From the UHGV virus genome UHGV-1361494: 46,377 nt of DNA; one strand, given 5' to 3'. The notes below the pieces were generated by a model that was not told the DNA's origin, ran no database searches, and saw only the letters and a program-made list of their open reading frames with translations. The position numbers were made by a program, and so were the translations under genes. This document shows, one piece after another, positions 5,256 to 46,117 of this stretch (within the stretch, counting starts at the first letter, position 1; every line of letters starts with the position of its first letter). The DNA comes from a virus.

Positions 5256-5271
5256 TCGAGAGGACATAAAA

Positions 5272-19691: not shown

Positions 19692-19705
19692 CTGACGTAG
19701 ATTGA
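19692..19705 (+). promoter_or_regulatory. copy 1 of conserved promoter motif (C)TGACGTAGATTGA
   Basis: ctgacgtagattga, upstream of the plus-strand sORF (19734..19868) and the HNH gene. Confidence 0.5.
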
Positions 19706-19854
19706 AAGCATAAGGTGATTGAGGGTTTGACATATGAACGAGACTGATGCTGATTTGAGATTTTACATCGACCTGTACGTTGATTGCGGGTTTACCTATG
19801 ATGAGGCCGAGTTGATGGCGAAAAAATTACTTGCAATGGTAGGGGTGACATTCG

Positions 19855-20340
19855 ATGAAAATAACTGATTGGTCAGATATTTTTTATTATTGTGATGGGG
19901 CTATTTACTGGAAGATAAGAACCTCAAACAGAGTGAAAATCGGAAGCGAGGTGAAGGCGGTAGGAGGCAATGGATATAAGATTGTTGGAATCTATGGCGT
20001 CAAGTATCTTGTTCATCGCATCATCTGGGAAATGCATAATGGGAAAATTCCTGACGGAATGCAGATTGATCATATAGACCACAATAAAACAAACAATAAG
20101 ATAGATAACCTCAGGCTTGTCACTCCAAAAGAGAATAATCACAACATGAAGTTCAGGGTGACAAACAAATCAGGTGTTACTGGTGTTTCATGGGGTAAAC
20201 AACATAAAAAATGGGCCTCAAACATAAAAGTTGATGGCGTAAAGATTCATCTTGGATTGTTTTCTGACTTAAATATGGCCGCTGAAGCAAGGAGAAAGGC
20301 GGAGGTTAAGTATGATTTTCATGAGAACCATGGTAAATGA
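19855..20340 (+). CDS. free-standing HNH homing endonuclease (HNH_3 + AP2-like DNA-binding domain)
   Basis: 161 aa. Motifs YLVHRIIWEMHNGKIPDGMQIDHIDHNKTNNKIDNLRLVTPKENNHN (HNH), GVTGVSWGKQHKKWASNIKVDGVKIHLGLFSD (AP2-type), and a C-terminal YDFHENHG. It lies on the opposite strand between the tail chaperone and major tail genes. Confidence 0.85.
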   Translation: MKITDWSDIFYYCDGAIYWKIRTSNRVKIGSEVKAVGGNGYKIVGIYGVKYLVHRIIWEMHNGKIPDGMQIDHIDHNKTNNKIDNLRLVTPKENNHNMKFRVTNKSGVTGVSWGKQHKKWASNIKVDGVKIHLGLFSDLNMAAEARRKAEVKYDFHENHGK

Positions 20341-20588
20341 TGATGGATAACGAAAATCGCTATGCCTGCGAGCAATACCTTGATGCACTGGTGACGCTGG
20401 AACTATCTGCAAAGTTCGCCATGCTCGAGCGCCGACCGGTAAATGGCAGCATTAAGGCGTGCTGGCAGGCTATCAGGCAGCGAGTGACCAATGACCTCAA
20501 CCGGAAGATTTTCGACGGCGTGAGTAGCCAGGCAATGCCACACGGTGCGCTATGCATGTTGCGCCGTCAGCTTGATGAGTGTGTATGA
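20337..20588 (+). CDS. hypothetical protein
   Basis: 83-aa ORF overlapping the HNH stop (ATGA); same operon as the HNH gene. Confidence 0.35.
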   Translation: MMMDNENRYACEQYLDALVTLELSAKFAMLERRPVNGSIKACWQAIRQRVTNDLNRKIFDGVSSQAMPHGALCMLRRQLDECV

Positions 20589-20755
20589 TGTTGCGGGAGA
20601 AAACCAATGGTGGTTGACCAAACAGATGCTGATGTCATATCCGCCTATGCCGGACAGTGCATTGACATTAATTACGCGATTGCCATTCACTTAAAGCGAT
20701 CTGAGTTTATGGCTAATCTGATTTTGTGGGCGATTAAAAATAAGACGAGGAAGGC

Positions 20756-20956
20756 GTGATAATGAGAGCCATTCATAAAATAAAAAAAGAAAGCCATGTG
20801 AACGAAATGATTGAATATTACGGCTGGATTTATGTCCATAAATTTAAATCTTCGCATAGTAACATGCGGAGGATAGCAAGAAGAATGGAGCGAGATGGCA
20901 AATTAAAGATGATATCTCAAGATAAGTTGTTTTTTAGATATGTAAGAACAGAATAA
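20756..20956 (+). CDS. hypothetical protein (AT-rich)
   Basis: 66-aa ORF, followed by a strong terminator (aacccccTTTCgggggtttt, 20955-20975). Confidence 0.3.
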   Translation: MIMRAIHKIKKESHVNEMIEYYGWIYVHKFKSSHSNMRRIARRMERDGKLKMISQDKLFFRYVRTE

Positions 20957-20977
20957 ACCCCCTTTCGGGGGTTTTCT

Positions 20978-21733
20978 TTATCGCTCAACGGTAACAACAC
21001 ACTTGGTTGAGTCAACGTAATCAGGGCTGGTTGCCGAGTCCATCACGCGGCAGAAGTACGTACCAGCATCGTCATTGACGGCGTCCGCCTTGGTATACGT
21101 GGCAGAAGTTGCGCTGCTAATCGGCGAAGTGCCTTTATACCATTGGTAGGTATAAGGCTTGACACCGCCATCCGCAACTACCGGGCCGAGCGTCAGAGCG
21201 TCGCCAGTAGCAACGTTTTTGGTTTCGCTGATATCAGTAGTCAGCGTTAAATCTTCGATGCTGGACACATCAACGGTAGAGCCATCATAAGGCTTGAATT
21301 CAACCGATCCGGTGATAATGTCGTTGGTGCCGCCATCGTAGCTCAGAGCGGTAATGTTGCAGTAGGCAACAACAACGGTATTACCGGTGGTCTGACGCAC
21401 CCACAGCGAAGGCTGACGACGCGCTTTTACTTCGGTGACAAAGTATTTGATGAGATTATGCACGCCATACTCATCAGCCTTGTCAGCCTTACGAACTTCA
21501 AAATCACCGGAAATGGTGAGGTCTGCGGTAGTGACCAGCGTCGCGACAAAGCCATCGCCATCATCAGCCTCTGAGGTAGTGGTGCTTGGGCTGAAGTCGA
21601 CGCCTTTTGAGGTCATGGGAGCAAAAAACTTCCAATCTTCCTCTACTGGCACAGCATCCCAGCAGCCATCAGCCAGCTCGATGAGCGACTGGCGACCTGT
21701 GATGATGCCGTTATCATTTGCACAAATAGCCAT
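20978..21733 (-). CDS. major tail protein with C-terminal Ig-like (Big_2-type) domain
   Basis: 251 aa. Syntenic position upstream of chaperone/TMP. The C-terminal ~80 aa, DALTLGPVVADGGVKPYTYQWYKG...AGTYFCRV..., is a typical Ig-like decoration as in lambda gpV. Confidence 0.7.
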   Translation of the reverse strand: MAICANDNGIITGRQSLIELADGCWDAVPVEEDWKFFAPMTSKGVDFSPSTTTSEADDGDGFVATLVTTADLTISGDFEVRKADKADEYGVHNLIKYFVTEVKARRQPSLWVRQTTGNTVVVAYCNITALSYDGGTNDIITGSVEFKPYDGSTVDVSSIEDLTLTTDISETKNVATGDALTLGPVVADGGVKPYTYQWYKGTSPISSATSATYTKADAVNDDAGTYFCRVMDSATSPDYVDSTKCVVTVER

Positions 21734-21778
21734 GTTTAGAATCCTCTCTGTTTAGCTAAACAATCGCATTATATCATG

Positions 21779-21807
21779 TTGACAGGTTTTGATTGGTGGT
21801 GTAGATT
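21779..21807 (+). promoter_or_regulatory. sigma70-type promoter driving the noncoding leader + tRNA cluster
   Basis: TTGACA (21779-21784), 17-nt spacer, TAGATT (21802-21807). Confidence 0.5.
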
Positions 21808-22218
21808 TAATGGCAGATAGTTTTCGGTGAGACTTTGCGGGTTTTTAGAAACTGACCACAAAGATAAATGCAAACGAAGAAATGTATCTGGCAGTAGCCT
21901 AACGGCTAAACACCAGCAAGGTCTTCCGACTCCTTGTCAATGAATTCGGCGCACTGGCCCGGTGTGATTAATGATGGGCACACAACAGGTAAGAGCATTG
22001 TCAGGTAGCTTCAGGGGACACGCCCGCACTGGTGACGACCTATGCGCAAAAGTACGTGTGGTAAGTCCTGGAGTGCTCTTTCCGTTGTGGTCAATGCGCA
22101 GGCTGATGCGCAGTGGGACGTGGCTGACTCACGAGGATGGCTCAAGCGAATAAGCAAGCTCGACGCCGCCGAATAAGCGCCTTATGCCGGATGCCAGCAC
22201 CGGACACCACAACACCAC

Positions 22219-22306
22219 GGATAGTTGGCTGAGAGGCCGAAAGCAGTCGGTTGCTAACCGATAAACCGGAAACGGTTCACAGGTTCGAATCCTGTACTAT
22301 CCGCCA
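22219..22306 (+). tRNA. tRNA-Ser (anticodon GCU), type II with long variable arm
   Basis: Acceptor ggatagt/actatcc, discriminator G, CCA. D-arm gct-gagaggccgaa-agc. Anticodon arm gtcgg-ttGCTaa-ccgat. Variable hairpin accgg-aaa-cggt. T-arm acagg-ttcgaat-cctgt. Confidence 0.85.
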
Positions 22307-22312
22307 CATTCA

Positions 22313-22389
22313 GCACCATTAGCTCATCAGGATAGAGCAATTGCCTTCTAAGCAATCGGTAACTGGTTCGAATCCAGTATGGTGCGCCA
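22313..22389 (+). tRNA. tRNA-Arg (anticodon UCU)
   Basis: Acceptor gcaccat/atggtgc + G + CCA. D-arm gctc-atcaggata-gagc. Anticodon arm attgc-ctTCTaa-gcaat (perfect). T-arm actgg-ttcgaat-ccagt. Confidence 0.85.
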
Positions 22390-22392
22390 AAT

Positions 22393-22469
22393 TCCCGTTT
22401 AGCTTAACTGGTTAAAGCACCCTACTCATAATCGGATGAGTACAGGTTCGAATCCTGTCGCGGGAACCA
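22393..22469 (+). tRNA. tRNA-like gene with Met/Ile-type CAU anticodon loop (CTCATAA) but a poorly paired anticodon stem
   Basis: Acceptor tcccgtt/cgcggga (6/7 pairs incl. G-U), discriminator A, CCA. D-arm gctt-aactggtta-aagc and T-arm acagg-ttcgaat-cctgt are canonical. The anticodon stem cccta/tcgga has only 3 pairs. An alternative perfect 6-bp hairpin actcat-aatcgg-atgagt exists. Confidence 0.5.
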
Positions 22470-22484
22470 TCTTCGGGGAGCGCA

Positions 22485-22670
22485 ATGATACAAATCCAAA
22501 AAATCCACGATGATTACTGGCGCATAGCTGACCAAAATAATAGCAGGGTTGCTGGTATATCAAAGGTCGGGAAGTGGTATGTTGTCGCAAATGCTAATGG
22601 GCGATATGATGCCAGATTCGAATATCTTGGCGATGCCATTGATTATTTATTATGTAGTAATGACTACTAA
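22485..22670 (+). CDS. hypothetical protein downstream of tRNA cluster
   Basis: 61-aa ORF with SD (GGGGAG) and a strong terminator (aaagccgctcatcagcggcttttttt) right after it. Confidence 0.35.
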   Translation: MIQIQKIHDDYWRIADQNNSRVAGISKVGKWYVVANANGRYDARFEYLGDAIDYLLCSNDY

Positions 22671-22694
22671 AAGCCGCTCATCAGCGGCCTTTTT

Positions 22695-23078
22695 TTATTC
22701 ACCAAAAACAACCCTCAGCAACAATTCATAAACCGGTCTCTGCTCCGTTGTGAGCGTCGGGCGTCCAAGCGGAGCCTGCAACTGAATCATGCCAATGCAA
22801 CTATCAACGGGATGCTCCTTGATGTATGCGATGACATCAAGCGCTTTTGCTTTTGTCTCCTCGATGTTGTACTGACCCTGCTGGCCGACAACATAGAGCG
22901 AAAAATAATAATCATTGCTGAGGTCTTTGCTTACGTTCGTACCACCATTGGATTGCAGCACCATAAACCGGTCTGTGCCAACTTCGGTATCGTTCCAGAA
23001 CTCAAGCTGAGAAGTCCACCCATCATAAAGACCGGCATCGCTAAGGTACTGGTCAACAAGCTCAAGCATATCTCTCAT
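22695..23078 (-). CDS. putative tail terminator / head-tail joining protein (gpU-like position)
   Basis: 127 aa; synteny only (between the Z-like gene and the major tail gene region). Confidence 0.35.
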   Translation of the reverse strand: MRDMLELVDQYLSDAGLYDGWTSQLEFWNDTEVGTDRFMVLQSNGGTNVSKDLSNDYYFSLYVVGQQGQYNIEETKAKALDVIAYIKEHPVDSCIGMIQLQAPLGRPTLTTEQRPVYELLLRVVFGE

Positions 23079-23491
23079 TTTAGCGTCATCTCTTTTTTGA
23101 TTACCTGATCGACAAGCTCGCGTGTGTTTTCGCCAGCCTTGAGAAGGAATTTAGGCTCGCCGCTCTTATCCCATACATTTCCCTTTCCTTTAAGTCTCCC
23201 TGTGCGCGGAGTATTCGTGCCAAGCAATTTACCTGGTGCATTATGGACATACAGGGCGTAATTAGCGGAATACCCAATCTTGCCAGTTATGCGAGTGCCA
23301 TTAACCTCAACGGTGTCATACTGGCTATTTATCAGCGTTGACGTGGCTACTGGCGTCATGGAGGCCGATTCAGTCCTGATGATGTGGTTGGCGGCTTTTA
23401 TTGCTGATACCGCCTTCTCACCAGTAATCTCACCGACTATCTGCTGGGTACGCTTAATCGCCTGCTGGATACCTCTCATTTTGGCGGCCAT
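23075..23491 (-). CDS. putative tail completion / head-tail joining protein (gpZ / HK97 gp10-like position)
   Basis: 138 aa; synteny and overlap-coupled with its neighbours. Confidence 0.35.
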   Translation of the reverse strand: MAAKMRGIQQAIKRTQQIVGEITGEKAVSAIKAANHIIRTESASMTPVATSTLINSQYDTVEVNGTRITGKIGYSANYALYVHNAPGKLLGTNTPRTGRLKGKGNVWDKSGEPKFLLKAGENTRELVDQVIKKEMTLK

Positions 23492-23494
23492 ACA

Positions 23495-23839
23495 TTACCC
23501 CGTTACCAGCGCAAAATCAGGAAGGTCGTTGCGATTTAGTGTATTGCCGTAATTCACGACGCTTCTAATCTGGTCAGCTCCGGCAGCCAAAGGGTCAGCA
23601 CTGGTAATGGTGCCAAGCATGATGAAGTCGCCAACAGACGCATCCTGGTATTCCGTCCAGAATGTGTTTTTCTGTGCAATCTCATTGCCAGCTGTGCCGG
23701 TGGTCAGATTCTTATCGAAGCCATAATCACACATGATGGGCTCTGGCGCGGCGAATGTTGGCTTGCCATACTTATCCTTGCCAGTAAGCCGCCAGATTGT
23801 GCATGGCTGCGTATAGCTCCATCTCGCTATCGCTGACAT
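23495..23839 (-). CDS. putative head-tail connector protein
   Basis: 114 aa; synteny only. Confidence 0.3.
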   Translation of the reverse strand: MSAIARWSYTQPCTIWRLTGKDKYGKPTFAAPEPIMCDYGFDKNLTTGTAGNEIAQKNTFWTEYQDASVGDFIMLGTITSADPLAAGADQIRSVVNYGNTLNRNDLPDFALVTG

Positions 23840-23957
23840 GGTGCGGCCTCAAGAGTATAAATCCAGCGCGGAACAGGAAGGCGCAGCAATACCAGAATAA
23901 CCAGCAGCGGCATGCACCATTTACGGATTGCGATATTTACAGTTAATGTTGACGTTT

Positions 23958-24350: not shown

Positions 24351-24615
24351 TCTTTTTGCTCTCCCGAATCTTCCACCACATCTCAAAAAGGTTTTTTGCC
24401 ACCAGTGACAGCGCGCCAAGTATAGAGGCTACCGCTGCCCACTCGGTAATCGAATGGGGGATCATTGAGGCAATGTATGATTGTGCGACCGGCGTCTGCT
24501 CTGCCACCTTCAGGCCAAGACCCGTGCCGATGGAGGTATAACCGGCTTTGTCGATTACCTGGCCGACAGTGCCACTAATTATCTGGTTTGCGGCGTGCTG
24601 AAGCGCGTCTCTCAT
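24328..24615 (-). CDS. hypothetical protein with one predicted transmembrane segment
   Basis: 95 aa; hydrophobic stretch WAAVASILGALSLVA; first gene after the minus-strand restart downstream of the plus-strand island. Confidence 0.3.
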   Translation of the reverse strand: MRDALQHAANQIISGTVGQVIDKAGYTSIGTGLGLKVAEQTPVAQSYIASMIPHSITEWAAVASILGALSLVAKNLFEMWWKIRESKKNGSTDSK

Positions 24616-24776
24616 TAATTATTCTCCGAATGATGAACTTCCAGCATCTGTACACCTGAACCAGCGAAAGCGCCATGACGATAACGCCGATTGCTATATC
24701 CAATTTCGCCGCCTTACGATTTTCAGGACGGAACAGCGCGGGTTGAGTGTTGTTGGTTTAATTTTATCATAAAGTG

Positions 24777-24805
24777 TTGACGTAGATTGAGGGTGTCGCT
24801 ATAGT
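24777..24805 (+). promoter_or_regulatory. copy 2 of TTGACGTAGATTGA promoter (-35 TTGACG, 17 nt, -10 TATAGT)
   Basis: ttgacg 24777-24782; tatagt 24800-24805; a second partial motif gacgtagaaaca follows at 24808. Confidence 0.6.
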
Positions 24806-24845
24806 GATGACGTAGAAACAACAATAAATGTTAGAGGTGATGAGG

Positions 24846-25139
24846 ATGAATGAATTCAAAGGTACGCCGGGGCCGTGGTTTGGAGATAACAGCAGGGCAA
24901 TAGGGCCAAAATCAACAGATGACGACCAGTCTTATGGAGTGATTATTCCTGTCGGCTGGGTTGAGTTTGACCCTGAAGTTGAGGTTCAAGTTGCCAACCA
25001 ACGAATGATGGCCGCTGCGCCGGAATTGCTGGAGGCTCTGGAGATGCTTGTAGTCTTCACTACGCCAACAAAAAGGAATGCCACTGCCTTGAGCAAGGCC
25101 TATGCCGCAATCGCAAAAGCACTCGGAGAACCCCAATGA
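24846..25139 (+). CDS. hypothetical protein, first gene of the plus-strand DNA-metabolism island
   Basis: ORF 24828..25139; the best start is ATG 24846, after SD AGAGGTGA. Confidence 0.4.
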   Translation: MNEFKGTPGPWFGDNSRAIGPKSTDDDQSYGVIIPVGWVEFDPEVEVQVANQRMMAAAPELLEALEMLVVFTTPTKRNATALSKAYAAIAKALGEPQ

Positions 25140-25259: not shown

Positions 25260-26075
25260 ATGACATCTCTCGGAAAAATTTACTCAGACAAAGAAACTCG
25301 CGGCGGAATCGTGGTCAACAAAGGTTATCAGGTCCCTGTCGACCAGCTTTACCTTGAGCCGGGGTACAACATCCGCGAAGCCGATGAGCAGCACGTTGAA
25401 TACTTCGCGCAGTGTTGGGAATCAGGACAGCCAATCCCGGCGTTAACTGTTATTCCTGATGCCGACGGAAAGCGCATCAAGATTCTTGACGGCCAGCATC
25501 GTTACCTTGGAGCACTGCGTGCCATTGAGCGCGGCGTGCCAATTGCGCGAATTGAGTGCAAAGACTTCACCGGCGATGAGGCGGATAAAATCGCCTTCAT
25601 GGTGTCTTCAAGTCAGGGCAAGCAACTCGAGCCGCTTGAGCGTGCAAAGGCTTATGTGCGCCTCAAAGGGTTCGGGTGGACGAATGAAGAAATCGCCAAG
25701 AAGGTCGGGCGCTCTGTGTCTGATGTGCAAATGCACCTGTCACTTGGTGATGTACCTGATGCCATCAAGCAGCGTATCAATGCAGGCCAAATCAGCTATG
25801 CCAACGCCGTTGCGGTCGCACGTGAGCATGGCGATGATGCCGTTAACGTTATTGATGCCGCCGTTGAGGAAGCGAAAGCGCAGGGCAAAGATAAGGTGAC
25901 GGCTAAAACGCTCAAGGCCAAAAAAGTTAAGCCGATTGACCGCCTGATTCAGTTGCTGAAAGAAGCAGACCATATGGTTGTCGCTGAGGGTCATGTGGCA
26001 CAGGAGACAGAAGAATTTTTGCGCCCTCCTTCCGCTGAGTTGAGTGAAGTTCTGGCTATTCTGGAGAAGCTGTGA
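25260..26075 (+). CDS. ParB-like nuclease domain (ParB/Srx fold) protein
   Basis: ORF 25224..26075; start ATG 25260 after SD GAGGGA. N-terminal ParB box: LEPGYNIRE...KILDGQHRYLGAL (DGQHR motif); C-terminal helical DNA-binding region. Confidence 0.65.
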   Translation: MTSLGKIYSDKETRGGIVVNKGYQVPVDQLYLEPGYNIREADEQHVEYFAQCWESGQPIPALTVIPDADGKRIKILDGQHRYLGALRAIERGVPIARIECKDFTGDEADKIAFMVSSSQGKQLEPLERAKAYVRLKGFGWTNEEIAKKVGRSVSDVQMHLSLGDVPDAIKQRINAGQISYANAVAVAREHGDDAVNVIDAAVEEAKAQGKDKVTAKTLKAKKVKPIDRLIQLLKEADHMVVAEGHVAQETEEFLRPPSAELSEVLAILEKL

Positions 26076-27695: not shown

Positions 27696-28232
27696 ATGAA
27701 ACTAAAAATCAACAAACCACTACTTGAATCAGCATTAATATTTCAGGCGCGCAACGATGTGCGCTACTACCTGAACGGAATCTGCTTCATGCCTGATGGT
27801 CGCATTGCGTCAACTGACGGTCATCGCGCATTCATTGGCGGCAATCATGAAAATAAGTTGACGGAAAATGTGATCATCAAGATTGGTAAACCTCCAACAA
27901 AACGCTATGACTACGCCATCATTGATACCAAGTCGAAAATTGCAACGTATCATGATGAAGCTGGCGTGATGGTTGGCGCTGGCATCTGCGAAGAGATTGG
28001 CGGCAGATTCCCTGACATTGACCGCGTGATACCAAAGGAAACGAAAGCAGCAGAGGAAATTTGCTTCAATGCTGGCTATCTGGTTGACGTTGAGAAAGTG
28101 GCCAGGCTGTTTAATCCTAAATTCTGTGGCGTTAAGTTTGAATTGAATGGGAATACAAATGCCGCAGTTTGCTGTCTTAGCGCGCCATCTGGCGAAACTG
28201 CGAAGATTGTTGTTATGCCTATGCGTCTGTAG
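27696..28232 (+). CDS. hypothetical protein, possible DNA polymerase III beta (sliding clamp)-like domain
   Basis: ORF 27654..28232; start ATG 27696 overlapping the upstream small ORF stop (ATGA). The N-terminal KLKINKPLLESALIFQARNDVRYYLNGICF pattern resembles DnaN domain beta-strands. This is a weak, motif-level impression only. It is followed by a terminator at 28237-28262. Confidence 0.35.
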   Translation: MKLKINKPLLESALIFQARNDVRYYLNGICFMPDGRIASTDGHRAFIGGNHENKLTENVIIKIGKPPTKRYDYAIIDTKSKIATYHDEAGVMVGAGICEEIGGRFPDIDRVIPKETKAAEEICFNAGYLVDVEKVARLFNPKFCGVKFELNGNTNAAVCCLSAPSGETAKIVVMPMRL

Positions 28233-28313
28233 AAATCAAAAGCCCCGCAACGGGGCTTTTCTTTTATCTTACAGCCATAGAAACCCCCAATAAAAAACCC
28301 GCATTATGCGGGT

Positions 28314-28523
28314 TTAGTTTACTCTGCTTTCTTTTTCTTTTTTCTTTGTCGTCTTTTCTTGCGGGGTTGCGACTTCGAAAGACTTTTCCAGTTCTGGCAT
28401 GACGCGCAGTTTTGACATCAGATGTTCAGCAGGTTCCGTGATAACCTCGCCAAGCTGCAATTCACGAATCTTGCCTTTCTCTTTAACAAAGATTCCGCGT
28501 GCGATGACTTCGTACTTAGCCAT
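28314..28523 (-). CDS. hypothetical small protein downstream of major capsid gene
   Basis: 69-aa ORF with a Lys-rich C-terminus, flanked by hairpins (28540-28565 upstream, 28291-28318 downstream). Confidence 0.35.
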   Translation of the reverse strand: MAKYEVIARGIFVKEKGKIRELQLGEVITEPAEHLMSKLRVMPELEKSFEVATPQEKTTKKKEKESRVN

Positions 28524-31538: not shown

Positions 31539-31548
31539 ATTATAACAC
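31539..31548 (-). promoter_or_regulatory. extended -10 element (TGTGTTATAAT) upstream of protease/scaffold-capsid genes
   Basis: The minus-strand sequence ...catggtgtgttataatccgggcat... sits ~30 nt upstream of SD GGAGAAAGG and ATG 31508. Confidence 0.45.
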
Positions 31549-32035: not shown

Positions 32036-32307
32036 TTGTTAATATTCTCCTCTAAAGCTCTAATAACAGCGCGGGTCAGGAGACCCTCACCATTCATGGC
32101 TACGTGCGCTTTTATCTCGCTAAGCGCTGCCTTTAAAACGCCAACACTTACCGTAACAACTCGCTTATTATCTTCATTTATTTTCTTCAATCTCTCTATT
32201 GCTGTTAGCTCTTCCACTATCCACCCCATCTCTCTACGATTATTGGCCGTGCGTTCACAGTTGGTGACAAACAGCACGGTTCCTGATTTATGCTTTACCG
32301 CCCACAT
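32032..32307 (-). CDS. hypothetical protein
   Basis: 91 aa; ATGA-type coupling with its neighbours. Confidence 0.35.
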   Translation of the reverse strand: MWAVKHKSGTVLFVTNCERTANNRREMGWIVEELTAIERLKKINEDNKRVVTVSVGVLKAALSEIKAHVAMNGEGLLTRAVIRALEENINK

Positions 32308-32765
32308 GACTGACGCGCCCCGGCAAGCAGCTTTTCAAACATCATCCTGTCACGACTCATTCCAAACGGGATGATTTCCTGCCAGTAATATTTCCATGCG
32401 CCGCCGGGAAGCATTTCGCGGTCAACCTGACCAATGCTTGCCAGATAGCGCATGCGTGCCTTGAGGATGGTGTAATTGACGCCTACAGCCTCTGCTATCT
32501 GCTTGCTCTTGCGTCCCGGGTTCGCCTCAAGATAGGTCTGAATTGCCAGGTCAAGCGCAGTATTATCGGGATTGAGGAAATACTTAAAGCAGCGCCTGCC
32601 ATGGCTTACGCTTTCCTCTTTAATAATAAATCCCATGCCCTCAAGCTCAATCAGATAACCAGTAACGCTGGCTCGGTTTGTCATGCCAGTCTGCTTGCGT
32701 ATCATGGCATTGGTTGCGCCGCCGCAGCGCTCTATCACCGTGAGTATTTGCGTTTTAAAGTCCAT
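32295..32765 (-). CDS. putative winged-helix DNA-binding protein (two wHTH-like repeats)
   Basis: ORF 32295..32819; probable start at MDFKTQILTV (SD GGAG). Repeats LTVIERCGGATNAMIRKQTGMT...GYLIELEGMGFI and KSKQIAEAVGVNYTILKARMRYLASIGQV resemble MarR/PadR-like wHTH. Confidence 0.4.
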   Translation of the reverse strand: MDFKTQILTVIERCGGATNAMIRKQTGMTNRASVTGYLIELEGMGFIIKEESVSHGRRCFKYFLNPDNTALDLAIQTYLEANPGRKSKQIAEAVGVNYTILKARMRYLASIGQVDREMLPGGAWKYYWQEIIPFGMSRDRMMFEKLLAGARQSCGR

Positions 32766-32991
32766 TTGCGCGCTCCATTGCATCCCGTTTGTAGTCGTCG
32801 GCGGTGTAGAGATGGCCATTTCTGGTATTCCATCTCCTGCGCATCAATTCGTCATTTCGATATTCTGCCGTTCGCATTTCACATTCGCCGCATTCAATGT
32901 ATCGCCACCCATCATCAGTTTCAATTCCGACATCCATCGAGCCGCAGTGGGCGCACTCAAGCAGCCCATCATCATTCATCATTGGGTTCAT
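32755..32991 (-). CDS. Lar-family-like zinc-ribbon protein (putative restriction alleviation)
   Basis: 78 aa with CAHCGS...(17 aa)...IECGECE, two CxxC pairs. Its size and acidic character are as in Lar-family proteins. Confidence 0.4.
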   Translation of the reverse strand: MNPMMNDDGLLECAHCGSMDVGIETDDGWRYIECGECEMRTAEYRNDELMRRRWNTRNGHLYTADDYKRDAMERANGL

Positions 32992-33699: not shown

Positions 33700-34217
33700 T
33701 CCACACCACCTTTTATCATTCTTTTTGGCCTATTGATTCCATGGTTTTCATGGAAACCATATTTCATTTCAGCTTCAAGTCTGGCCTTTATTGCTTCGCT
33801 CTTTTCTGAAAAGCGACCTAAGTGCAGCCTTGTTCCGTTTAAGACTATTTGCGCGTACCACTTGCCGCGCTTTTTATCAAAACAAACACCAACAACACCA
33901 CTGGTGTTGTCGCTCCTGATTGAACTGTTTCTCGTGTTTTCTCTCCTGTTAACAAGCCTGAGATTCTCTATTCGGTTGTCATCTCTGATGTGGTTGATGT
34001 GATCAATTTCCATGTCTTCCGGTATTGGTCCGTTAAATAGCTCCCAAACAATCCTGTGCTCATATGTCTGGGTGTATTTTACTTTTACCTTTCGATAACC
34101 TGTCGTTGGCTCCAGGCTCCCAATCCTTGCGCCAGCCTTTACGTTGTTTGACGGCTTAACCTTCCAGTAAAGCTTGCCGTTTTCGTAAACAAACAAGTCA
34201 ATAAAGTTCATATCCAC
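33696..34217 (-). CDS. free-standing HNH homing endonuclease (paralog of 19855..20340)
   Basis: 173 aa. Same architecture and many identical residues as the other HNH gene: LYWKVKPSNNVKAGARIG, HRIVWELFNGPIPEDMEIDHINH, IENLRLVNRRENTRN, SGVVGV, GTRLHLGRFS, KYGFHENHG. Confidence 0.85.
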   Translation of the reverse strand: MDMNFIDLFVYENGKLYWKVKPSNNVKAGARIGSLEPTTGYRKVKVKYTQTYEHRIVWELFNGPIPEDMEIDHINHIRDDNRIENLRLVNRRENTRNSSIRSDNTSGVVGVCFDKKRGKWYAQIVLNGTRLHLGRFSEKSEAIKARLEAEMKYGFHENHGINRPKRMIKGGVE

Positions 34218-34265
34218 ATCACTCGCATTAAGATGTTATAATCTACAACACCTAGTATTGACTAA

Positions 34266-34277
34266 TTGACGTAGATT
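34266..34277 (+). promoter_or_regulatory. copy 3 of TTGACGTAGATT promoter motif
   Basis: ttgacgtagatt 34266-34277, upstream of plus-strand genes 34307-35189. Confidence 0.5.
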
Positions 34278-34306
34278 AGTCAAGATGATTTCACAGGAGA
34301 GCGACA

Positions 34307-34507
34307 ATGGCGAGACAACGCAAAGAACCACTGGAAGTACTGACTGATATTATCGCTAAGCGCCAGCCGTTAAGCCTGCGAGATGTCAGATATTACGCGC
34401 ACTGCTATGTAGCAATGCGTGAATGGAGTGCTGAAGAAATGTATGCGTTTGTGCGTGAGCACTTCAGCGTGGATGAGAAAAACAAAGTTACGTTGAGGGT
34501 GGAGTGA
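34307..34507 (+). CDS. hypothetical protein
   Basis: 66 aa; SD AGGAGAG before ATG 34307. Confidence 0.4.
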   Translation: MARQRKEPLEVLTDIIAKRQPLSLRDVRYYAHCYVAMREWSAEEMYAFVREHFSVDEKNKVTLRVE

Positions 34508-34977
34508 TGAAATACAAATACCTGAAAGGAAGTGCTGATTATTTTAATGGTCATGAAGATGCCGTTCTTGCTGTGAAGTCAGCAACCAGTGGCAAAATCC
34601 ACTACCTCAGCGCGGATTATGCAGGGCGAGATAAGGATATCGAAAAGGCTGGCGATATTGTTATCGCCCATCGCGAGCCAGTAACTGATGATGACTTGAA
34701 TTGGCGCATCATCTCAACAGAAGCCCTCGTCACCGAGCGCGGCAGCCGTTATGGCAAATTCAAAGACGGCGCAGAAATCATGCGATCTCTGAAACGAGTT
34801 ATGCATGACGCGGAGGGCTGGAATAACCTGACGGCGAGCCAGAAGGAAGCGCTCGACATGATTCAGCATAAAATTGGTCGCATCCTGAATGGCGACCCGA
34901 CATACGACGATAGCTGGAAAGACATCGCTGGCTATGCAACATTAATTGTTAATGAACTGAATGGGGAGGTGAAGTGA
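34504..34977 (+). CDS. hypothetical protein
   Basis: 157 aa, overlap-coupled (ATGA). Confidence 0.4.
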   Translation: MMKYKYLKGSADYFNGHEDAVLAVKSATSGKIHYLSADYAGRDKDIEKAGDIVIAHREPVTDDDLNWRIISTEALVTERGSRYGKFKDGAEIMRSLKRVMHDAEGWNNLTASQKEALDMIQHKIGRILNGDPTYDDSWKDIAGYATLIVNELNGEVK

Positions 34978-35189
34978 TGCCAATACAAGACCCCGTGCCA
35001 CGCATTGAAATCGACATGGTGGAGTTACACGAACCTGCCCGGCGCGATTATCATGTCCCGAGGCTTGGAGAACCAGCAGCCTACATCATCACCAGCAACC
35101 GTGGTCGCCGCTATCTGGCGTTTGCTGGTAGTGTTGAGCATCAGAATGCGACCATGTTTGGGTACAAAATGGAGGCGCTTTATGCGTGA
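34974..35189 (+). CDS. hypothetical protein
   Basis: 71 aa, overlap-coupled; followed by bidirectional terminator 35214-35236. Confidence 0.35.
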   Translation: MMPIQDPVPRIEIDMVELHEPARRDYHVPRLGEPAAYIITSNRGRRYLAFAGSVEHQNATMFGYKMEALYA

Positions 35190-35211: not shown

Positions 35212-35240
35212 AACAAAGCCCCTTACGGGGCTTTTTTGTT
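35212..35240. terminator. bidirectional terminator between plus-strand island and Rz/Rz1
   Basis: aaagccccTTACggggcttttttg with A-tract on the other side. Confidence 0.6.
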
Positions 35241-36368: not shown

Positions 36369-36408
36369 TTTTACCTCCGGTGATGCAGATTATTTTATCA
36401 CAATAGTC

Positions 36409-36422
36409 TTGACGTAGATTGA
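36409..36422 (+). promoter_or_regulatory. copy 4 of TTGACGTAGATTGA promoter motif
   Basis: ttgacgtagattga 36409-36422, divergent from the endolysin start, upstream of plus gene 36467. Confidence 0.55.
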
Positions 36423-36466
36423 ATCGTAAGCGATGATGTAGATACACAAACACAGGAGAGTAAAAA

Positions 36467-36757
36467 ATGAAAAAATTAATCGCAGCAGCAGTATTCGCAA
36501 TGGCTTCATTTGGTGCGTCGGCTGGCGAGTTTTGCAATGCAGTTGGTGAGTTCGGTGAAGCGGCAGCAGAAGCCCGTGATGCTGGCGTATCAAAGCAGCT
36601 CGCGCTGATTGTTTCTTTTGGAGGCCAGTATAGCGCTGAATTTAACCAACTCAGCAAGGCCATCGTTGATGGGGCATACAAAATGACAGACAAGACACCG
36701 AAAGAAGTGGCTGCTGTCGCCCGTGAAGTCTGCCTGTCAACGGTGGGCGACAAATAA
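36467..36757 (+). CDS. secreted (Sec signal peptide) small protein, function unknown
   Basis: 96 aa; MKKLIAAAVFAMASFGASAGE signal peptide (AXA site); strong SD AGGAGAG; two Cys in the mature part. Confidence 0.5.
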   Translation: MKKLIAAAVFAMASFGASAGEFCNAVGEFGEAAAEARDAGVSKQLALIVSFGGQYSAEFNQLSKAIVDGAYKMTDKTPKEVAAVAREVCLSTVGDK

Positions 36758-37113
36758 TGTGCCCGCTACTGATGTTTAAGGCTCGCAATCGCTACGTTAA
36801 GCTGGTGATGCGCGGCATGGATGAGCATGCAGCATGGCTGAGTGTGATGGGTGAGCTTAGAGAGGTTTATTTAAATGAACAAAATAGAATGACTTGAGTC
36901 TATGCACACCCTTCACGGTAAAGTTGAAATACTGTACGTTGTTGATGGATACCAGATTCAACGCACCTACGATGATGCTGAGGTGGGCAACCCAATCAAG
37001 GCATCGACTCTTTCTGAGTGCATTGATATGGCAATCAAAGAAGGTTGGGTGCCGCTAACTATGAACGCCGGATGATTAAAGCAATATGATGCTTAGATGA
37101 AATTAAGCCGCCA

Positions 37114-38058
37114 TCAGGCGGCTTTCTTGTGTGTATCCTGCCACGCCTCACGCTGCTTATCGAGTCTTTCCTGCGTTTTTTCAAGTATCACAGGCTTGCC
37201 ATCCATCACCAGTGCTGGGGTTTGCGCACAGTGGCAGTTACGGCGGTTTGCGCCTTCGCTGTAGAACTCATCAATCTCTTCCGGGGTGTAATATTTCCCA
37301 TGACGCGCGGCATGAGTAACGCGAGTTGTCTTCATCAGCGCCGACTGCCAGAGCATAATGGTATCCATCCCCAGCGTGACTTGCGCCTCTTTCACTTCGC
37401 GCCTGTTAGCCTCGCGCAGGGTGTTGGTAATTTCAGTCTGAGCGATTGACCGCGCATAACTCCTTGACACGTCCATGCGGTTAACGATGTTTTGCTCAAC
37501 CACTCCAGGAGCGTCGCCATTTGCAATGCCAGCAGTGATGACCTCTGCCACCTGTTGCCGCGTGTAATCTGAAAGGCCACCCCAATCGTTATACGTGCGC
37601 GTGTACGCTAACTGAAGCCTGTCGAGATACGGCTGAGAGTACAGGATTTCAGCAAGCGGCCTGCTGTCTTTATATGCCGACGACAGGTCGCCAAGGTCTG
37701 AGTTTGCCTTCTGCGTACCGGCATACATGGCATCGCTGACATAAGATGATGCCCACATTCTTCCGTGCGTGAAATCATCACCTTCCAGCAGATGACTATC
37801 AAGAATGCGCTGAAGTTCATCAAAGAATGTCGATGCGCGGTAGGCGGAGAAATCATAATAATAATTTCCAGCCTCAGCATTGCCGGTCGCCACAGGAATG
37901 GTGCGGAACAGCTCGGCAACCTGCGATTTTAGCGTCATATATCTGGCGTCAACGTCGCGCACCATCTTATTGACGCGACCCACTGCGCCGAGTGGGTCTG
38001 TTAGGCTCATGCTTAATTTTGGCTGCGGAAGCCGGGCATTAATTTTGAGGAGGCGCAT
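37114..38058 (-). CDS. head morphogenesis protein (phage Mu gpF / SPP1 gp7-like), start uncertain (38058 or 38010)
   Basis: ORF 37114..38163 lies directly downstream of the portal gene and overlaps its end, the canonical portal-MuF pairing. Bidirectional terminator at 37099-37118. Confidence 0.5.
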
Positions 38059-39475: not shown

Positions 39476-39524
39476 TTCGTCACCATAAAAAATCCCATCG
39501 CATGGATGGGATTATAGCATGGTA

Positions 39525-40571: not shown

Positions 40572-40600
40572 TTGACGTAGATTCTAGCATGGCGTAGATT
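40572..40600 (+). promoter_or_regulatory. copy 5 of TTGACGTAGATT promoter (-35 TTGACG, 17 nt, -10 TAGATT)
   Basis: ttgacg 40572-40577; tagatt 40595-40600; upstream of plus gene 40627. Confidence 0.55.
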
Positions 40601-40626
40601 AAAATGAAACCTCTCGGAGAAATCTT

Positions 40627-40917
40627 ATGAAATGTGTCATTTTCGAGCTTGATGGCGTGCTGCGCGATGCGGAGGGAAATGCTATTGCTGGCAACGTTGC
40701 GCTGGCTAAGTCGCTCTACTCTGCCGGGCATGACGTGCTTATCATGAGGGCAAAGCATGCGTATGAATGGCTGCATGCTAACGATGTATTCTATGATGAC
40801 ATCATGGCTTCGCACCAGCAGATTGATGCAGAAAGGGTGGCGATTGCGGTCGTGTCTAATGACGTGATTTATGCCGCCATGCGCAACGCGGGGATTCATT
40901 GCTGGCTTTATAAATAG
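40627..40917 (+). CDS. hypothetical protein with degenerate HAD-like motif I (IFELDGVL)
   Basis: 96 aa; SD GGAGA before ATG 40627. Single-gene plus-strand island between the TerL and portal regions. Confidence 0.35.
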   Translation: MKCVIFELDGVLRDAEGNAIAGNVALAKSLYSAGHDVLIMRAKHAYEWLHANDVFYDDIMASHQQIDAERVAIAVVSNDVIYAAMRNAGIHCWLYK

Positions 40918-43472: not shown

Positions 43473-43556
43473 CAGGGCATCATTGAAGTGAATGCGGCAG
43501 GCGGTGATGAGTCGCTTTTCGGGTGCCCCCTAGCCGCATTGATTATTATAAATCAG

Positions 43557-43973
43557 TTACTGTTGCTGCTCCAGTAATTTCTCCAGTCGCTCAAGGCGTG
43601 CGGCGAGCTCTGTTACTTCTTCGATATCAAGCCCAGTCCTGATAACCTCAGCAAATGTCTTGCCAATGTCCACAGGTATAACGCCAGCGGCTATGCCACG
43701 AATAACGGCGTCAATCTTCTGAACAGGGGTTCCGTCATCAGGGAAGTCCACCTCAAACACTGGGGCGACTGGTTTCGGCAACGGACTGAACCGAACGATA
43801 AGCTCCTTCATCATTGCAGTGTCACGTTCAATCATCGCCATCTCAACGATGGTGTCATAGAGCTTTTCCTCACTAAATCCCTTTCTCTCAAGAGCTTCAA
43901 CGAGCAACTTACGCTTGTCTTTCCCGCGTTTGTTTTGTGGTTGATTTTCTTTACTGAATAGCTTTTTAGCCAT
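43557..43973 (-). CDS. putative terminase small subunit
   Basis: 138 aa, basic N-terminus (KENQPQNKRGKDKRKLLVEALERKG), C-terminal coiled coil; immediately upstream of TerL. Confidence 0.5.
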   Translation of the reverse strand: MAKKLFSKENQPQNKRGKDKRKLLVEALERKGFSEEKLYDTIVEMAMIERDTAMMKELIVRFSPLPKPVAPVFEVDFPDDGTPVQKIDAVIRGIAAGVIPVDIGKTFAEVIRTGLDIEEVTELAARLERLEKLLEQQQ

Positions 43974-44052
43974 AGATAAAACCTATCAATATTCCGCTTT
44001 TTTTCCGTTATTTGATATTGTAACAGATTCTACACCATGACGTTAATGGCAA

Positions 44053-44080
44053 AAAAAGAACCCGCCGAAGCGGGTTAAAG
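44053..44080 (-). terminator. rho-independent terminator upstream of the packaging/late operon
   Basis: The minus-strand sequence aacccgcTTCGgcgggtt is followed by a T-tract. Confidence 0.5.
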
Positions 44081-44272
44081 GGTGGTGGGTGATGATTGAT
44101 GAGATGATTGTACATCAGTTTTCGCATAACACCAAACATTACAGTTATTGCTTTGAACGTGAACCACCTCAATCGCATCAGGAAAGGCTTTGGCGATTGC
44201 TGCTATGAAGTGGTCGACACCCTCAAGCTGAGCCATCTGCCACACCTCCTGCTTTGATTTTTGTGGCATCAC
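44075..44272 (-). CDS. hypothetical protein
   Basis: 65-aa ORF. Confidence 0.3.
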   Translation of the reverse strand: MMPQKSKQEVWQMAQLEGVDHFIAAIAKAFPDAIEVVHVQSNNCNVWCYAKTDVQSSHQSSPTTL

Positions 44273-44519
44273 TGATACCTCGTAGTTGAGTACATATGCC
44301 GAAGCATGCTGTTATGCTCAACCACCATCATCATGCTGCCAACCTGAATGACTGCATGATGCTTACCAGTCTCCTCATAAAGAAAATCAGCCTCTTCGCA
44401 CGCCGCCTGAATGTCGCTCCACAACATGATTCACCTCACGATAAAGTATATAGCCAGTGCAACGGCAATTCAGAATGCCAGCAGTGATACTGCAATTAGC
44501 CTGCGGATGATGTATGGTT

Positions 44520-45572
44520 TCATGGTTTATCCTCCTGCGGAGCTGATGGCAGAGGTTGCCAGTGGGTTATCTTTGCGTATGTATCTACCCAGTAACCCCA
44601 AGGGTGAGGCTGCGAACCAGTTGCGTAGTGAGCAGTGAATACGCGTTCTCCATCAAATACATTCACTTCAATGTCGCTGTATTCGCAATCAGCAGAAGGG
44701 GTCAATGGCATCCGCTCGCTTACCGGAATCCATTTGCCCGGCACGGTGGCCGGCTCGATGACGGGTGACTGCTGGCCAGCTGCTAACGTGGAGTCGATGA
44801 TATACTGGCGCATCCAGTTAGCTCCACGTGCAAACACGTCTACCGGGTCTCCGTGGTAATCACCTATTTCATATGCCTGCTCTGGTGTCATTTCCTCCGG
44901 AGATACCGGTGCTGGCTGCGCGTGACGATATAGCTTCGTACCGTATGGCATTTGCTGAATGCCTACAAGCGGTCTAATCTCTCGCTCCCCAAAATCTTCG
45001 TGGTCACCATAAATTGAAACCACTTCTGCCACCGGCTCGCTGTCCATTGCGGACAGCGCCAGTTCAGCAGGCTGCAGGTCAGCCAATATTTCTTCGCGCG
45101 CGCTTTCGAATGCTGTCTGTCGTGATGCCATTTTCAGAGCTTTGGCGATGCTGTGGTTTGCCTTGCTCATTTGGCCCCCCTCGCGCAGCTGCTTGGCGAA
45201 CTTAAGCGCCTCTTCGGTCGTGCCATTCCAGCGGCCGCCCCTACTGGAAACCCACTCCTCCACCCCATCAGCCTTGATACCGGCTACGATGCGATCTGAG
45301 GCTGGGGTCGTTTCTTGCGGAGATACAGCAATACGAATGGTTTCTAGTGCCGGGTCAGTTTCAACTGTTGGCACCTTGATATAACCTAACTGCACCCCGT
45401 TCATGATGAACATGCGGCGATCATCGCTCGTCGCCTTCAGCGCTATATTCTCCACAGCCAGCTGAACGCACAGCTTTGCAACCTTGAGGTATTTTTCCTC
45501 TTTGATTGAGAGCTCACCACCGCCCTCAAGGTTTTTAATAATTTCATGAACTTCGTTAATTTCGATATCCAT
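44520..45572 (-). CDS. hypothetical protein with C-terminal DUF551-like region
   Basis: 350 aa; the C-terminal ...GKWIPVSERMP...W..LPSAPQ pattern resembles DUF551, which is found at the C-terminus of many phage early proteins. Confidence 0.4.
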   Translation of the reverse strand: MDIEINEVHEIIKNLEGGGELSIKEEKYLKVAKLCVQLAVENIALKATSDDRRMFIMNGVQLGYIKVPTVETDPALETIRIAVSPQETTPASDRIVAGIKADGVEEWVSSRGGRWNGTTEEALKFAKQLREGGQMSKANHSIAKALKMASRQTAFESAREEILADLQPAELALSAMDSEPVAEVVSIYGDHEDFGEREIRPLVGIQQMPYGTKLYRHAQPAPVSPEEMTPEQAYEIGDYHGDPVDVFARGANWMRQYIIDSTLAAGQQSPVIEPATVPGKWIPVSERMPLTPSADCEYSDIEVNVFDGERVFTAHYATGSQPHPWGYWVDTYAKITHWQPLPSAPQEDKP

Positions 45573-45578
45573 AAATCC

Positions 45579-45857
45579 TCACTTAACCGCCTGTAAACGC
45601 TCAAGCTCACGCATCAGCGCAGATACCCGGCGTTGCCGCAAAGTTTCTGCATGCTCTTTTGCCTGTTGCTCATCAAGCCAGTACTCACCACGTTTAAAGT
45701 AAACATCGCCAACTACAGCCACCTGCCCATCTGCGAATAGCTGTGCGCTTTCGTACTTCTGAATGCCACGGGTTAGCGCATACTTCGTGACCCATATAGT
45801 CTCAGCGCTTGCTGCGTTAGCGATAATCAGTAAAACCACTGCCAGTAATTTATTCAT
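45579..45857 (-). CDS. secreted small protein (signal peptide), function unknown
   Basis: 92 aa; MNKLLAVVLLIIANAASAETI signal peptide. Confidence 0.4.
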   Translation of the reverse strand: MNKLLAVVLLIIANAASAETIWVTKYALTRGIQKYESAQLFADGQVAVVGDVYFKRGEYWLDEQQAKEHAETLRQRRVSALMRELERLQAVK

Positions 45858-45872
45858 CGTTGCTAAACCGGT

Positions 45873-46067
45873 TTAGTTTCCACCAGATGACACGATAACC
45901 TGTTCAAGCACTCTCTGCTTGCCTTCGCCACTAAAAACGCGACAGACGCGCTTACCGTTGCTGTATGCTTGCATCGCCTGTGCCATCATAAAGTTCTGCG
46001 CCTTAACTGCGCCCATTTCTGGTTCCAGTTGAGTGCGCGTGTAGATTGCTTTGGTCATTTTCACCAC
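45873..46067 (-). CDS. hypothetical protein
   Basis: 64-aa ORF, first gene downstream of the minus-strand copy of the conserved promoter. Confidence 0.35.
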   Translation of the reverse strand: MVKMTKAIYTRTQLEPEMGAVKAQNFMMAQAMQAYSNGKRVCRVFSGEGKQRVLEQVIVSSGGN

Positions 46068-46088
46068 CTCGTTGTTGTTGGTGTGGTA

Positions 46089-46117
46089 ACTATACGATGG
46101 CGCTCAATCTACGTCAA
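46089..46117 (-). promoter_or_regulatory. copy 6 of TTGACGTAGATTGA promoter on the minus strand (-35 TTGACG, 17 nt, -10 TATAGT)
   Basis: Plus-strand tcaatctacgtcaa 46104-46117 = RC of the motif; RC of actata 46089-46094 = tatagt. Confidence 0.55.

Follow-up and report, generated by a model that had tools for sequence, protein, structure and literature searches.

Class-specific promoters that phages present to the host RNA polymerase are already known in kind, as are moron-like units. The closest described systems are the early and middle promoters of phage T4, the latter with a MotA box that lies near -30; the Thermus phage P23-45 (gp39/gp76), with its switch from -35/-10 promoters to -35-independent extended -10 promoters; the morons of lambdoid phages; the Cro/CI operators at PR and PL of lambda; and the KorB regulon of plasmid RK2, whose 12 operators lie at promoters or close to them. 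Extended -10 promoters are insensitive to the AsiA protein of T4. A comparable arrangement is described here in the virus genome UHGV-1361494, the 46,377-base stretch that was analysed at its full length (the window), which is a near-complete genome of a Roufvirus-like Klebsiella siphophage. An initial annotation of this DNA had pointed to a conserved 14-nucleotide (nt) motif, TTGACGTAGATTGA. This motif represents, in its fullest form, a promoter element specific to the clade and here called the GTAGAT box (consensus nTGRYGTAGATTga). Two classes of predicted promoter, box promoters (E class) and extended -10 promoters (L class), were shown to be segregated by strand and by gene class. The reading favoured here, with somewhat better than even confidence, is that the box is an E-class promoter element for host sigma-70 polymerase in Roufvirus/Skatevirus-type siphophages that doubles as the operator of a phage protein.

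Like the early and middle promoters of T4, the box promoters are host-polymerase promoters with conserved extra bases, mark one gene class and occur in many copies per genome, and in the copies that serve as a -35 the extra element lies around -30, as it does in T4 middle promoters. Unlike MotA-box promoters, in which the -35 is replaced, they keep a canonical -35, and the same element also occurs as a -10 region and at +1. Pfam scans of 30 window proteins, which are not all of its open reading frames (ORFs) and among which small proteins may escape, detected no sigma, anti-sigma or MotA/AsiA-like domain and no homologue of MotA or AsiA. The resemblance to P23-45 lies in one gene set with -35/-10 promoters and virion genes with TGn-extended -10 promoters that lack a -35, all apparently read by the host polymerase. 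In contrast to P23-45, no homologue of its polymerase-binding proteins was found, the two classes are interleaved back-to-back on opposite strands, and the order of their use is taken from the genes they serve. What appears to be new, against the literature searched, is the use of one box as -35, as -10 and at +1, the building of entire promoters from tandem boxes, and the back-to-back placement of box promoters with -35-less virion promoters.

The GTAGAT box as a promoter element

The nearest relatives of the window are the Klebsiella virus KpV2811 (46,391 base pairs (bp); 95.9% identity over 84% of a 25-kb window query), pIS4-A (genus Roufvirus), ZX4, BUCT541 and KlebP_265. Skatevirus-type phages of Salmonella and E. 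coli (Bas80, seszw) are ~81% identical across one third of the query. The minus strand of the window carries the virion and lysis genes and is broken up by short plus-strand islands. The motif had been reported at the head of every strand-switch island, which proved too strong a statement, since six of eight divergent junctions carry it. The junction of the transfer RNA (tRNA) unit has only a degenerate form, GTGGTGTAGATTTA, which serves as a -10, and the divergent junction at 3834-3964, inside an alternative replication module, lacks the motif.

All six copies that had been listed (19692, 24777, 34266, 36409 and 40572 on the plus strand, 46104-46117 on the minus strand) were found in place and in the orientation given, but the 14-mer is exact in only three of them (24777, 36409 and 46104-46117). 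It did not occur in 100 shuffles of the sequence. Site 19692 (CTGACGTAGATTGA, which begins CTGACG) has one mismatch to it, and 34266 (ending GATTAG) and 40572 (ending GATTCT) have two each. Common to all six sites is the 11-mer TGACGTAGATT, with exactly six copies in the window and none in 100 shuffles, so that over-representation of the motif was confirmed. The 9-mer ACGTAGATT is found nowhere in the window beyond these sites, and the half-copies of ACGTAGA noted earlier are present, at 139 and 24810.

The element also emerged from counts made without reference to the motif. In an unbiased word count, GTAGATT and GACGTAGA were the top intergenic-enriched words of the window, nine of the 11 copies of GTAGATT being intergenic (1.3 expected), and GTAGATT/GACGTAGA again came out on top, independently, in Bas80, a member of another genus (Skatevirus type). 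A promoter scan blind to the box (TTGAC, 16-18 nt, a -10-like hexamer; intergenic matches) returned nine intergenic promoters in the window, seven of which contain the box, straight after the -35 or as the -10. Further boxes lie at 21796-21809, 24807-24820, 34238-34251 (minus strand), 36433-36446, 40589-40602 and 44025-44038 (minus strand), and relatives have additional ones before their DEAD-box helicase and exonuclease VIII genes.

The box offers two registers to the polymerase: its 5' part is TTGACG, a near-consensus -35, and its middle is TAGATT, a usable -10. At 24777, 36409, 40572 and 46104 it forms the -35 and the first part of the spacer, and a -10 follows 17 nt downstream (TATAGT, GATGAT, TAGATT and TATAGT, respectively). 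The -10 hexamers proposed earlier, TATAGT at 24800-24805 and at 46089-46094 (minus strand) and TAGATT at 40595-40600, each with a 17-nt spacer, therefore stand. At 19692 (18 nt after a TTGACA) and in the tRNA promoter (TTGACA at 21779, 17 nt, TAGATT at 21802, in agreement with the initial annotation) the box is the -10 region. The TTGACG-type hexamer at 19692 is not a -35, because the start codon is only 42 nt from the start of the box; at both 19692 and 34266 that register would place the transcription start at or beyond the ribosome-binding site. The proposal of an operator overlapping a sigma-70 -35 was supported as to sigma-70-type promoters, but the 14-mer is the -35 at only four of six sites. 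The TAGATT before gene 296 exists as well (at 264), but with merely a weak -35 (TTTACT).

Two boxes 17 nt apart make up a whole promoter at 40572/40589, in Bas80 and at many sites in IMG/VR relatives. The start codon follows the start of the box by 34-46 nt where the box is a -10 and by 51-69 nt where it is a -35; for the six sites the distances are 42, 69 (51 to an upstream in-frame ATG), 41, 58, 55 and 59 nt, roughly the 40-60 nt given in the initial annotation. All copies are intergenic, are oriented with the next gene and leave room for a 5' untranslated region (5'UTR) with a ribosome-binding site, and A+T-rich, UP-like stretches lie upstream of the -35-type boxes. Sigma-70 -35/-10 pairs were recognised at 19674-19703, 21779-21807, 24777-24805, 40572-40600 and 46117-46089, a weaker one at 36409-36437 (GATGAT) and none at 34266. 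The sites are as follows.

19692..19705, plus strand: box CTGACGTAGATTGA; TAGATT at 19698-19703 is the -10, TTGACA at 19674-19679 the -35, with an 18-nt spacer; heads the HNH island 19734-20956
21779..21809, plus strand: promoter of the tRNA unit; TTGACA, 17 nt, TAGATT; the degenerate box GTGGTGTAGATTTA at 21796-21809 is the -10 region
24777..24820, plus strand: promoter of the ParB/methylase/EndoVII/RusA island; exact 14-mer as -35 and first part of the spacer, TATAGT at 24800-24805
24807-24820, plus strand: second box ATGACGTAGAAACA, at about +1 of the ParB-island promoter
34234-34242, plus strand: extended -10 TGTTATAAT, upstream of the 34266 box on the same strand
34238..34251, minus strand: box GTGTTGTAGATTAT, 40 nt before the start codon at 34211
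34266..34279, plus strand: box TTGACGTAGATTAG, before the island 34307-35189, without a canonical partner hexamer
36409..36446, plus strand: promoter of the island 36467-37075; exact 14-mer as -35, GATGAT at 36432-36437 after 17 nt
36433-36446, plus strand: further box ATGATGTAGATACA, at about +1 of the 36409 promoter
40572..40602, plus strand: tandem-box promoter of gene 40627-40917; TTGACGTAGATTCT as -35, ATGGCGTAGATTAA as -10 (TAGATT at 40595-40600)
44017-44025, minus strand: extended -10 TGTTACAAT, after the box variant at 44025-44038
44025..44038, minus strand: internal box variant ATGGTGTAGAATCT, directly past a terminator-like hairpin at 44059-44076
46089..46117, minus strand: promoter of the leftward operon 46058 to 43557; exact 14-mer as -35 behind an A+T-rich stretch, TATAGT at 46089-46094

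The box at 34266 lies inside a 9-bp inverted repeat (TTGACTAAT/ATTAGTCAA), and the minus-strand operon that starts at 34211 comprises an HNH gene, small ORFs and Lar-like and MarR-like genes. The 5' leader of the ParB island (24807-24846, GAYGTAGAAACAACAATAAATGTTAGAGGTGATG) is near-invariant in two genera, at ~2 bits/position, and an in-frame ATG at 24828, which has no ribosome-binding site, may be the true start of the first gene of that island.

Hairpin terminators close the islands at 20955-20974, 28238-28315, 35215-35234 and 37105-37124. With a box promoter at its head and such a terminator at its end, each island is a self-contained unit, and gene content varies widely among KpV2811, pIS4-A, KlebP_265 and Bas80. 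In this, and in their position between blocks of virion genes, the islands agree with lambdoid morons, in which a promoter, one or more ORFs and a terminator are inserted among late genes. They differ from morons in being antisense to the late genes, in belonging to a virulent phage, in holding up to seven genes and in sharing one promoter type, which implies that they are regulated together rather than acquired independently. The claim of a single co-regulated regulon holds to the extent that the box heads one class of unit: accessory islands, a leftward early-looking operon and the tRNAs and, in relatives, replication genes. In the genome-reduction study of the related phage seszw (PMC9825161), most genes are described as removable.

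Several observations concern gene exchange at these sites. Homology between pIS4-A (L121, 28387, minus strand) and window position 19692 ends directly past the box, and in pIS4-A a superinfection-immunity gene takes the position of the small ORF and HNH gene. Genomes share the promoter of the 46104-type site but differ in the first gene behind it. Cassette exchange thus appears to take place at or beside boxes.

The box-less junction at 3834-3964 belongs to a replication/recombination module (296-9221) that is an alternative to the KpV2811-type module and is common to VLCpiS13c, 6991, YX3973 and Sf11. Its genes include a Cro/YdaS-like regulator (3591-3833), a 772-amino-acid primase-helicase and, by labels from the records of relatives, Sak4-like, SSB, Gam-like and helicase genes. 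It has a promoter of its own, TTGACC-17-TATCTT at 3893, and no GTAGAT box. AAAATCC/GGATTTT words are enriched in the large non-coding region across the window ends (1-120 and 46300-46377; eight intergenic copies) and may be iterons or mark an origin or packaging region.

Extended -10 promoters of the virion and lysis blocks

A -35-less extended -10, TGnTAnAAT (the L class), precedes every virion and lysis block on the minus strand: portal, capsid, head-tail, major tail, tail chaperone, tail fibre and lysis. TGNTANAAT occurs 14 times in the window, against 6.9 +/- 2.6 expected, and 13 of the copies lie on the structural (minus) strand. Of the nine intergenic TGnTAnAAT copies on that strand, eight are found 23-43 nt before a start codon, the exception being 24761, with 145 nt to the annotated start. 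By eye, no TTGACA-like hexamer was seen upstream of the portal L promoter, the single upstream region examined. The same split was found in KpV2811 and Bas80, with boxes before islands, replication genes and small early-type genes and an extended -10 before every virion and lysis block. The L promoters of the window are listed below.

11853..11861, minus strand: TGATACAAT, 32 nt before the tail fibre/spike gene
19665..19673, minus strand: TGGTATAAT, 28 nt before the tail chaperone/tape-measure block, back-to-back with the box promoter 19674-19703
21768..21776, minus strand: TGATATAAT, before the major tail gene, back-to-back with the tRNA promoter
24761..24769, minus strand: TGATAAAAT, before the head-tail connector block, 7 nt from the 24777 box
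31539..31547, minus strand: TGTTATAAT, 30 nt before the capsid protease/scaffold, decoration and coat genes
36392..36400, minus strand: TGATAAAAT, 23 nt before the endolysin-holin-spanin block, 8 nt from the 36409 box
39511..39519, minus strand: TGCTATAAT, 35 nt before the portal gene
40581..40589, minus strand: TGCTAGAAT, overlapping the 40572 box on the opposite strand

Box and L promoters stand back-to-back at 19665/19692, 21768/21796, 24761/24777 and 36392/36409 and share an intergenic region of ~100 nt. Their predicted start sites are ~52-59 bp apart, so that two polymerases cannot sit on both simultaneously. The overlap at 40581-40589 also accounts for the CT at positions 13-14 of the 40572 box, which the extended -10 on the other strand occupies.

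Some features of these regions were recorded in passing. The 145-nt gap at 24616-24760 (minus strand) holds a possible small hydrophobic ORF (TTG start, ~33 amino acids) that is unannotated in relatives. The portal promoter TGCTATAAT overlaps the left arm of a terminator-like hairpin at 39491-39519 (AATCCCATC...GATGGGATT and a T run); transcripts reading through would terminate there, and those from the local promoter would lack the full stem. An Rfam scan of the window matched three tRNAs and one int-alpA RNA (RF02996; 43477-43540, minus strand; 42.6 bits, gathering threshold 35.8), which lies between a TATAAT and the terminase start codon, and found no RNA family at any box. Similar leaders of the form TGnTATAAT-N6-TGCrGCTAG...CGAAAAG follow extended -10s in Bas80 (L123, ~28162-28209) and in a seszw mutant (L203, 34667 and 37709), and an int-alpA-type leader may be a structured leader of late transcripts.

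Conservation of the box and candidate binding proteins

Conservation was measured on loci chosen independently of the motif. In all, 79 loci were collected by way of the ParB-like protein and the site was located by its conserved 5'UTR, which gave 69 loci from two genera. A scan of IMG/VR for the exact 14-mer yielded 119 loci, 50 of them in the clade and the remainder chance-like; these were left out of the statistics because they had been picked by the motif itself. In the 69 loci the 14-mer was exact in 59, had one mismatch in seven and two mismatches in three. Information content was 1.98 bits/position for TTGACG and 2.0 for TATAGT, 1.85 for the bases TAGATTGA that follow TTGACG and 1.08 for the other nine spacer bases. 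Constraint on the eight positions behind the -35 therefore comes close to that on the hexamers, which bears out the claim that conservation extends past the -35 and is as an overlapping operator would predict. Purifying selection was shown to act on the whole box.

The alternative that survives best is that the box is two juxtaposed hexamers of overlapping promoters, with flanks tuned to sigma-70 polymerase and no dedicated factor. It accommodates the use of both hexamers as core elements at different sites, the UP-like DNA upstream of -35-type copies, the asymmetry of the box and its invariable co-orientation with transcription, the 17-nt tandem spacing, which equals the -35/-10 distance, and the lack of sigma, anti-sigma, MotA- or AsiA-like domains among the 30 scanned proteins. 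It does not account for several other features. The -35-type copies have no -35 for their own TAGATT (the best upstream scores are 1-3/6), and they tolerate the variant TGGATT, which lacks the essential A and would abolish -10 function, while T-R-GAT is retained. Boxes of the -10 type that have a TTGACA of their own upstream still keep TG-R-Y-G ahead of TAGATT, with the TG at -17/-16, off the extended -10 position. Extra boxes also lie at about +1 (24807 and 36433).

Further circumstantial evidence for a bound factor comes from an uncultured sister lineage whose ParB-like protein is 62-68% identical and in which TTGACGTAGAT and GTAGATT elements are present. Four of its loci (L192, L193, L205 and L206) carry GTAGAT-N4/5-ATCTAC palindromes over the -10 before the ParB-like and exonuclease VIII genes; in these, 10-11 bp separate the centres of the half-sites, and no gene lies ahead of the reverse half. 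These palindromes resemble a dimer operator, which favours a box-binding protein and is not expected from overlapping sigma-70 promoters alone. They occur in the sister lineage only, and no inverted half-site was found next to any window box. An origin in polymerase contacts alone is accordingly judged unlikely, if still a serious contender, and the 14-mer is probably a landing site for a phage regulator in addition. That a regulator binds the box at all is inferred here.

A separate feature of the sister locus L193 is a perfect 12-nt inverted repeat at 3945-4003 (GACCTCCTGTGT / ACACAGGAGGTC), which pairs the -35 region with the ribosome-binding site of the ParB-like gene; the site is predicted to be sequestered in read-through transcripts and free in those from the local promoter.

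Lambda Cro/CI operators offer a parallel, in that a protein-sized conserved sequence lies over the -35, -10 or +1 of strong early promoters and the sister palindromes have half-site centres 10-11 bp apart. They differ in that no dyad symmetry exists in this phage or its genus-level relatives, and the Cro-like protein of the window belongs to the box-less module. To our knowledge, the sites of host factors (FNR, IHF, MetJ, NarL, response-regulator repeats) show no resemblance that fits the boxes.

Among the proteins of the window, the best candidate for the box-binding factor, on comparative grounds, is a ParB/KorB-like protein.

25260..26075, plus strand: DNA-binding protein of the ParB/KorB family by profile and PDB matches; candidate box binder

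It matches HTH_ParB (43 bits) and a KorB domain (27.8 bits) and, in PDB, Spo0J, ParB, Noc and KorB; with an N-terminal domain and a helix-turn-helix (HTH) it belongs genuinely to the ParB family. All three box-bearing lineages have the same recognition helix, RSVSDVQMHLSL, from which box-less relatives depart at 5/12 positions. The protein is 81-99% identical across both genera (81% between genera, compared with 40% for the MarR-like protein), and its gene shares an operon with the best-conserved box. ParB-like homologues were found in 192 records and portal homologues of at least 60% identity in 207. In more distant phages that share these proteins, both the island architecture and the box are missing: Kp4856-1 (portal 44%, ParB-like protein 48% identical) has a different, unidirectional architecture and no box, and the more distant relatives L198-L202 have no box either, the GC-rich palindrome before their ParB-like gene probably being just a terminator. 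The gene is kept in every reduced seszw mutant among the matches listed, down to 36.7 kb; mutant 230S (L203, 37,966 bp) keeps the ParB-like gene and box promoters and has lost the MarR-like, methyltransferase and RusA genes.

The likeness to the RK2 KorB regulon extends to the dispersal of about ten copies at promoters, including that of the protein's own operon, next to an encoded ParB/KorB-type HTH protein. KorB operators are 13-bp palindromes, unlike the asymmetric single boxes that are the putative operators here, and the setting is a virulent phage, not a plasmid.

Other candidates were set aside. The Cro-like protein (3591-3833) and protein 296-856, both put forward in the initial annotation as possible regulators, are missing from the box-bearing relatives KpV2811, pIS4-A, KlebP_265 and Bas80; being absent where boxes persist, neither can be the common binder. 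The MarR-like protein (32295-32819) was downgraded, as it is 40% identical in Bas80 and missing from a viable seszw mutant that retains boxes.

Alternative functions and a model of promoter use

A second alternative is that a phage protein on the box near -30 recruits or remodels sigma-70 polymerase, in the manner of MotA, to make middle promoters. The box core GACGTAGAT lies at about -33 to -25 in the -35-type copies, the location of the T4 MotA box, partner hexamers are poor at several boxes (34266; GATGAT at 36432), and an asymmetric box would suit a monomeric activator. Yet TTGAC is intact, and the best sites are near-consensus with 17-nt spacing and UP-like DNA and should fire unaided; the same box at -10 and +1 would be unworkable for an activator, and the scans of 30 window proteins described above detected no MotA/AsiA domain. 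Such a role is considered highly improbable.

That the boxes are parS-like loading sites, at which the ParB-type protein organises, protects or segregates the replicating genome and promoter location is secondary, would fit the presence of a genuine ParB-family protein with N-terminal domain and HTH, the roughly ten dispersed sites per genome, which recall dispersed parS sites or KorB operators, and the palindromes of the sister lineage. Every box is nevertheless in promoter register, at fixed distances from a start codon and oriented with transcription, none lies in coding DNA or at random intergenic positions, and single half-sites are poorly bound by proteins of the ParB family. We give this possibility very little weight.

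Nor does it seem at all probable that the boxes serve mainly as short shared homologies for cassette exchange between phages: the end of homology with pIS4-A directly past the 19692-type box, the differing first genes behind the conserved 46104-type promoter and the highly variable island contents would agree with it, but paralogous copies share only 11-14 nt, with no common flanks and, unlike the T4 PeSL cassette, no common stem-loop, the breakpoints beside boxes are anecdotal only, exchange at conserved promoters is the expected by-product of any conserved regulatory site, and strict promoter geometry and fixed-distance -10 conservation are left unexplained. A Q-type antitermination system (a factor site in the spacer and a -10-like pause at +1) was dropped, since the accessory operons are short and no Q-like protein is evident.

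The reading that the box is both a sigma-70 promoter element and the operator of a phage protein leads to the following model. In it we infer the start sites, the division into temporal classes, that a regulator exists, which protein it is and which sign it has, and the switch as a whole. E promoters would transcribe the tRNAs, the accessory islands on the opposite strand and the early-looking operon that runs leftward, together with replication genes in relatives. Box bases dispensable for sigma-70 would be retained for recognition of GTAGAT by a phage DNA-binding protein. Bound over the -35 and spacer, the -10 or +1, this protein would shut off the E promoters during infection and so free the overlapping L promoters, and the ParB/KorB-like protein (25260-26075) would be the best candidate for it. 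The further step, that this protein is a global silencer of the KorB kind, which a lytic phage has put to new use in switching from early to late transcription at about eight bidirectional nodes, is doubtful and is offered as speculation.

A number of points weigh against this model. In this phage the box is asymmetric, an uncommon property for a site of ParB/KorB or Cro-type dimers, and tandem boxes are 17 nt apart, a promoter spacing and not a helical-repeat spacing. Dual -35/-10 use in overlapping promoters could explain much of the conservation, and the box at 34266 fits neither promoter register cleanly. Conservation of the HTH tracks the overall similarity of the ParB-like protein. Retention of its gene in seszw mutants proves little, because the authors of that study state that they avoided "likely regulatory elements" (PMC9825161), and the gene may simply not have been targeted. 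The L promoters at 31539, 39511 and 11853 are off the divergent junctions, with no box nearby, so the switch cannot be general. Perfect extended -10s should fire on host polymerase from the outset, so that "late" describes gene content only. The literature searched does not describe the promoters of this clade and yielded no transcriptomics and no start-site or time-course data.

The clade comprises more than 200 sequenced phages of Klebsiella, Salmonella, E. coli and Shigella, several of which have been proposed for therapy or as engineering chassis (seszw, BASEL phages). For these phages, a promoter map of two classes with coordinates allows co-regulated genes to be predicted, accounts for the coexistence of antisense islands and virion operons, and tells engineers which short sequences should survive any deletion or insertion of genes. 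Were the box an operator, its roughly ten sites would form a small regulon, and the widespread ParB-like proteins of phages would gain a function. If it is not, the boxes would still constitute a well-defined, portable family of promoters for enterobacteria, predicted to be strong.

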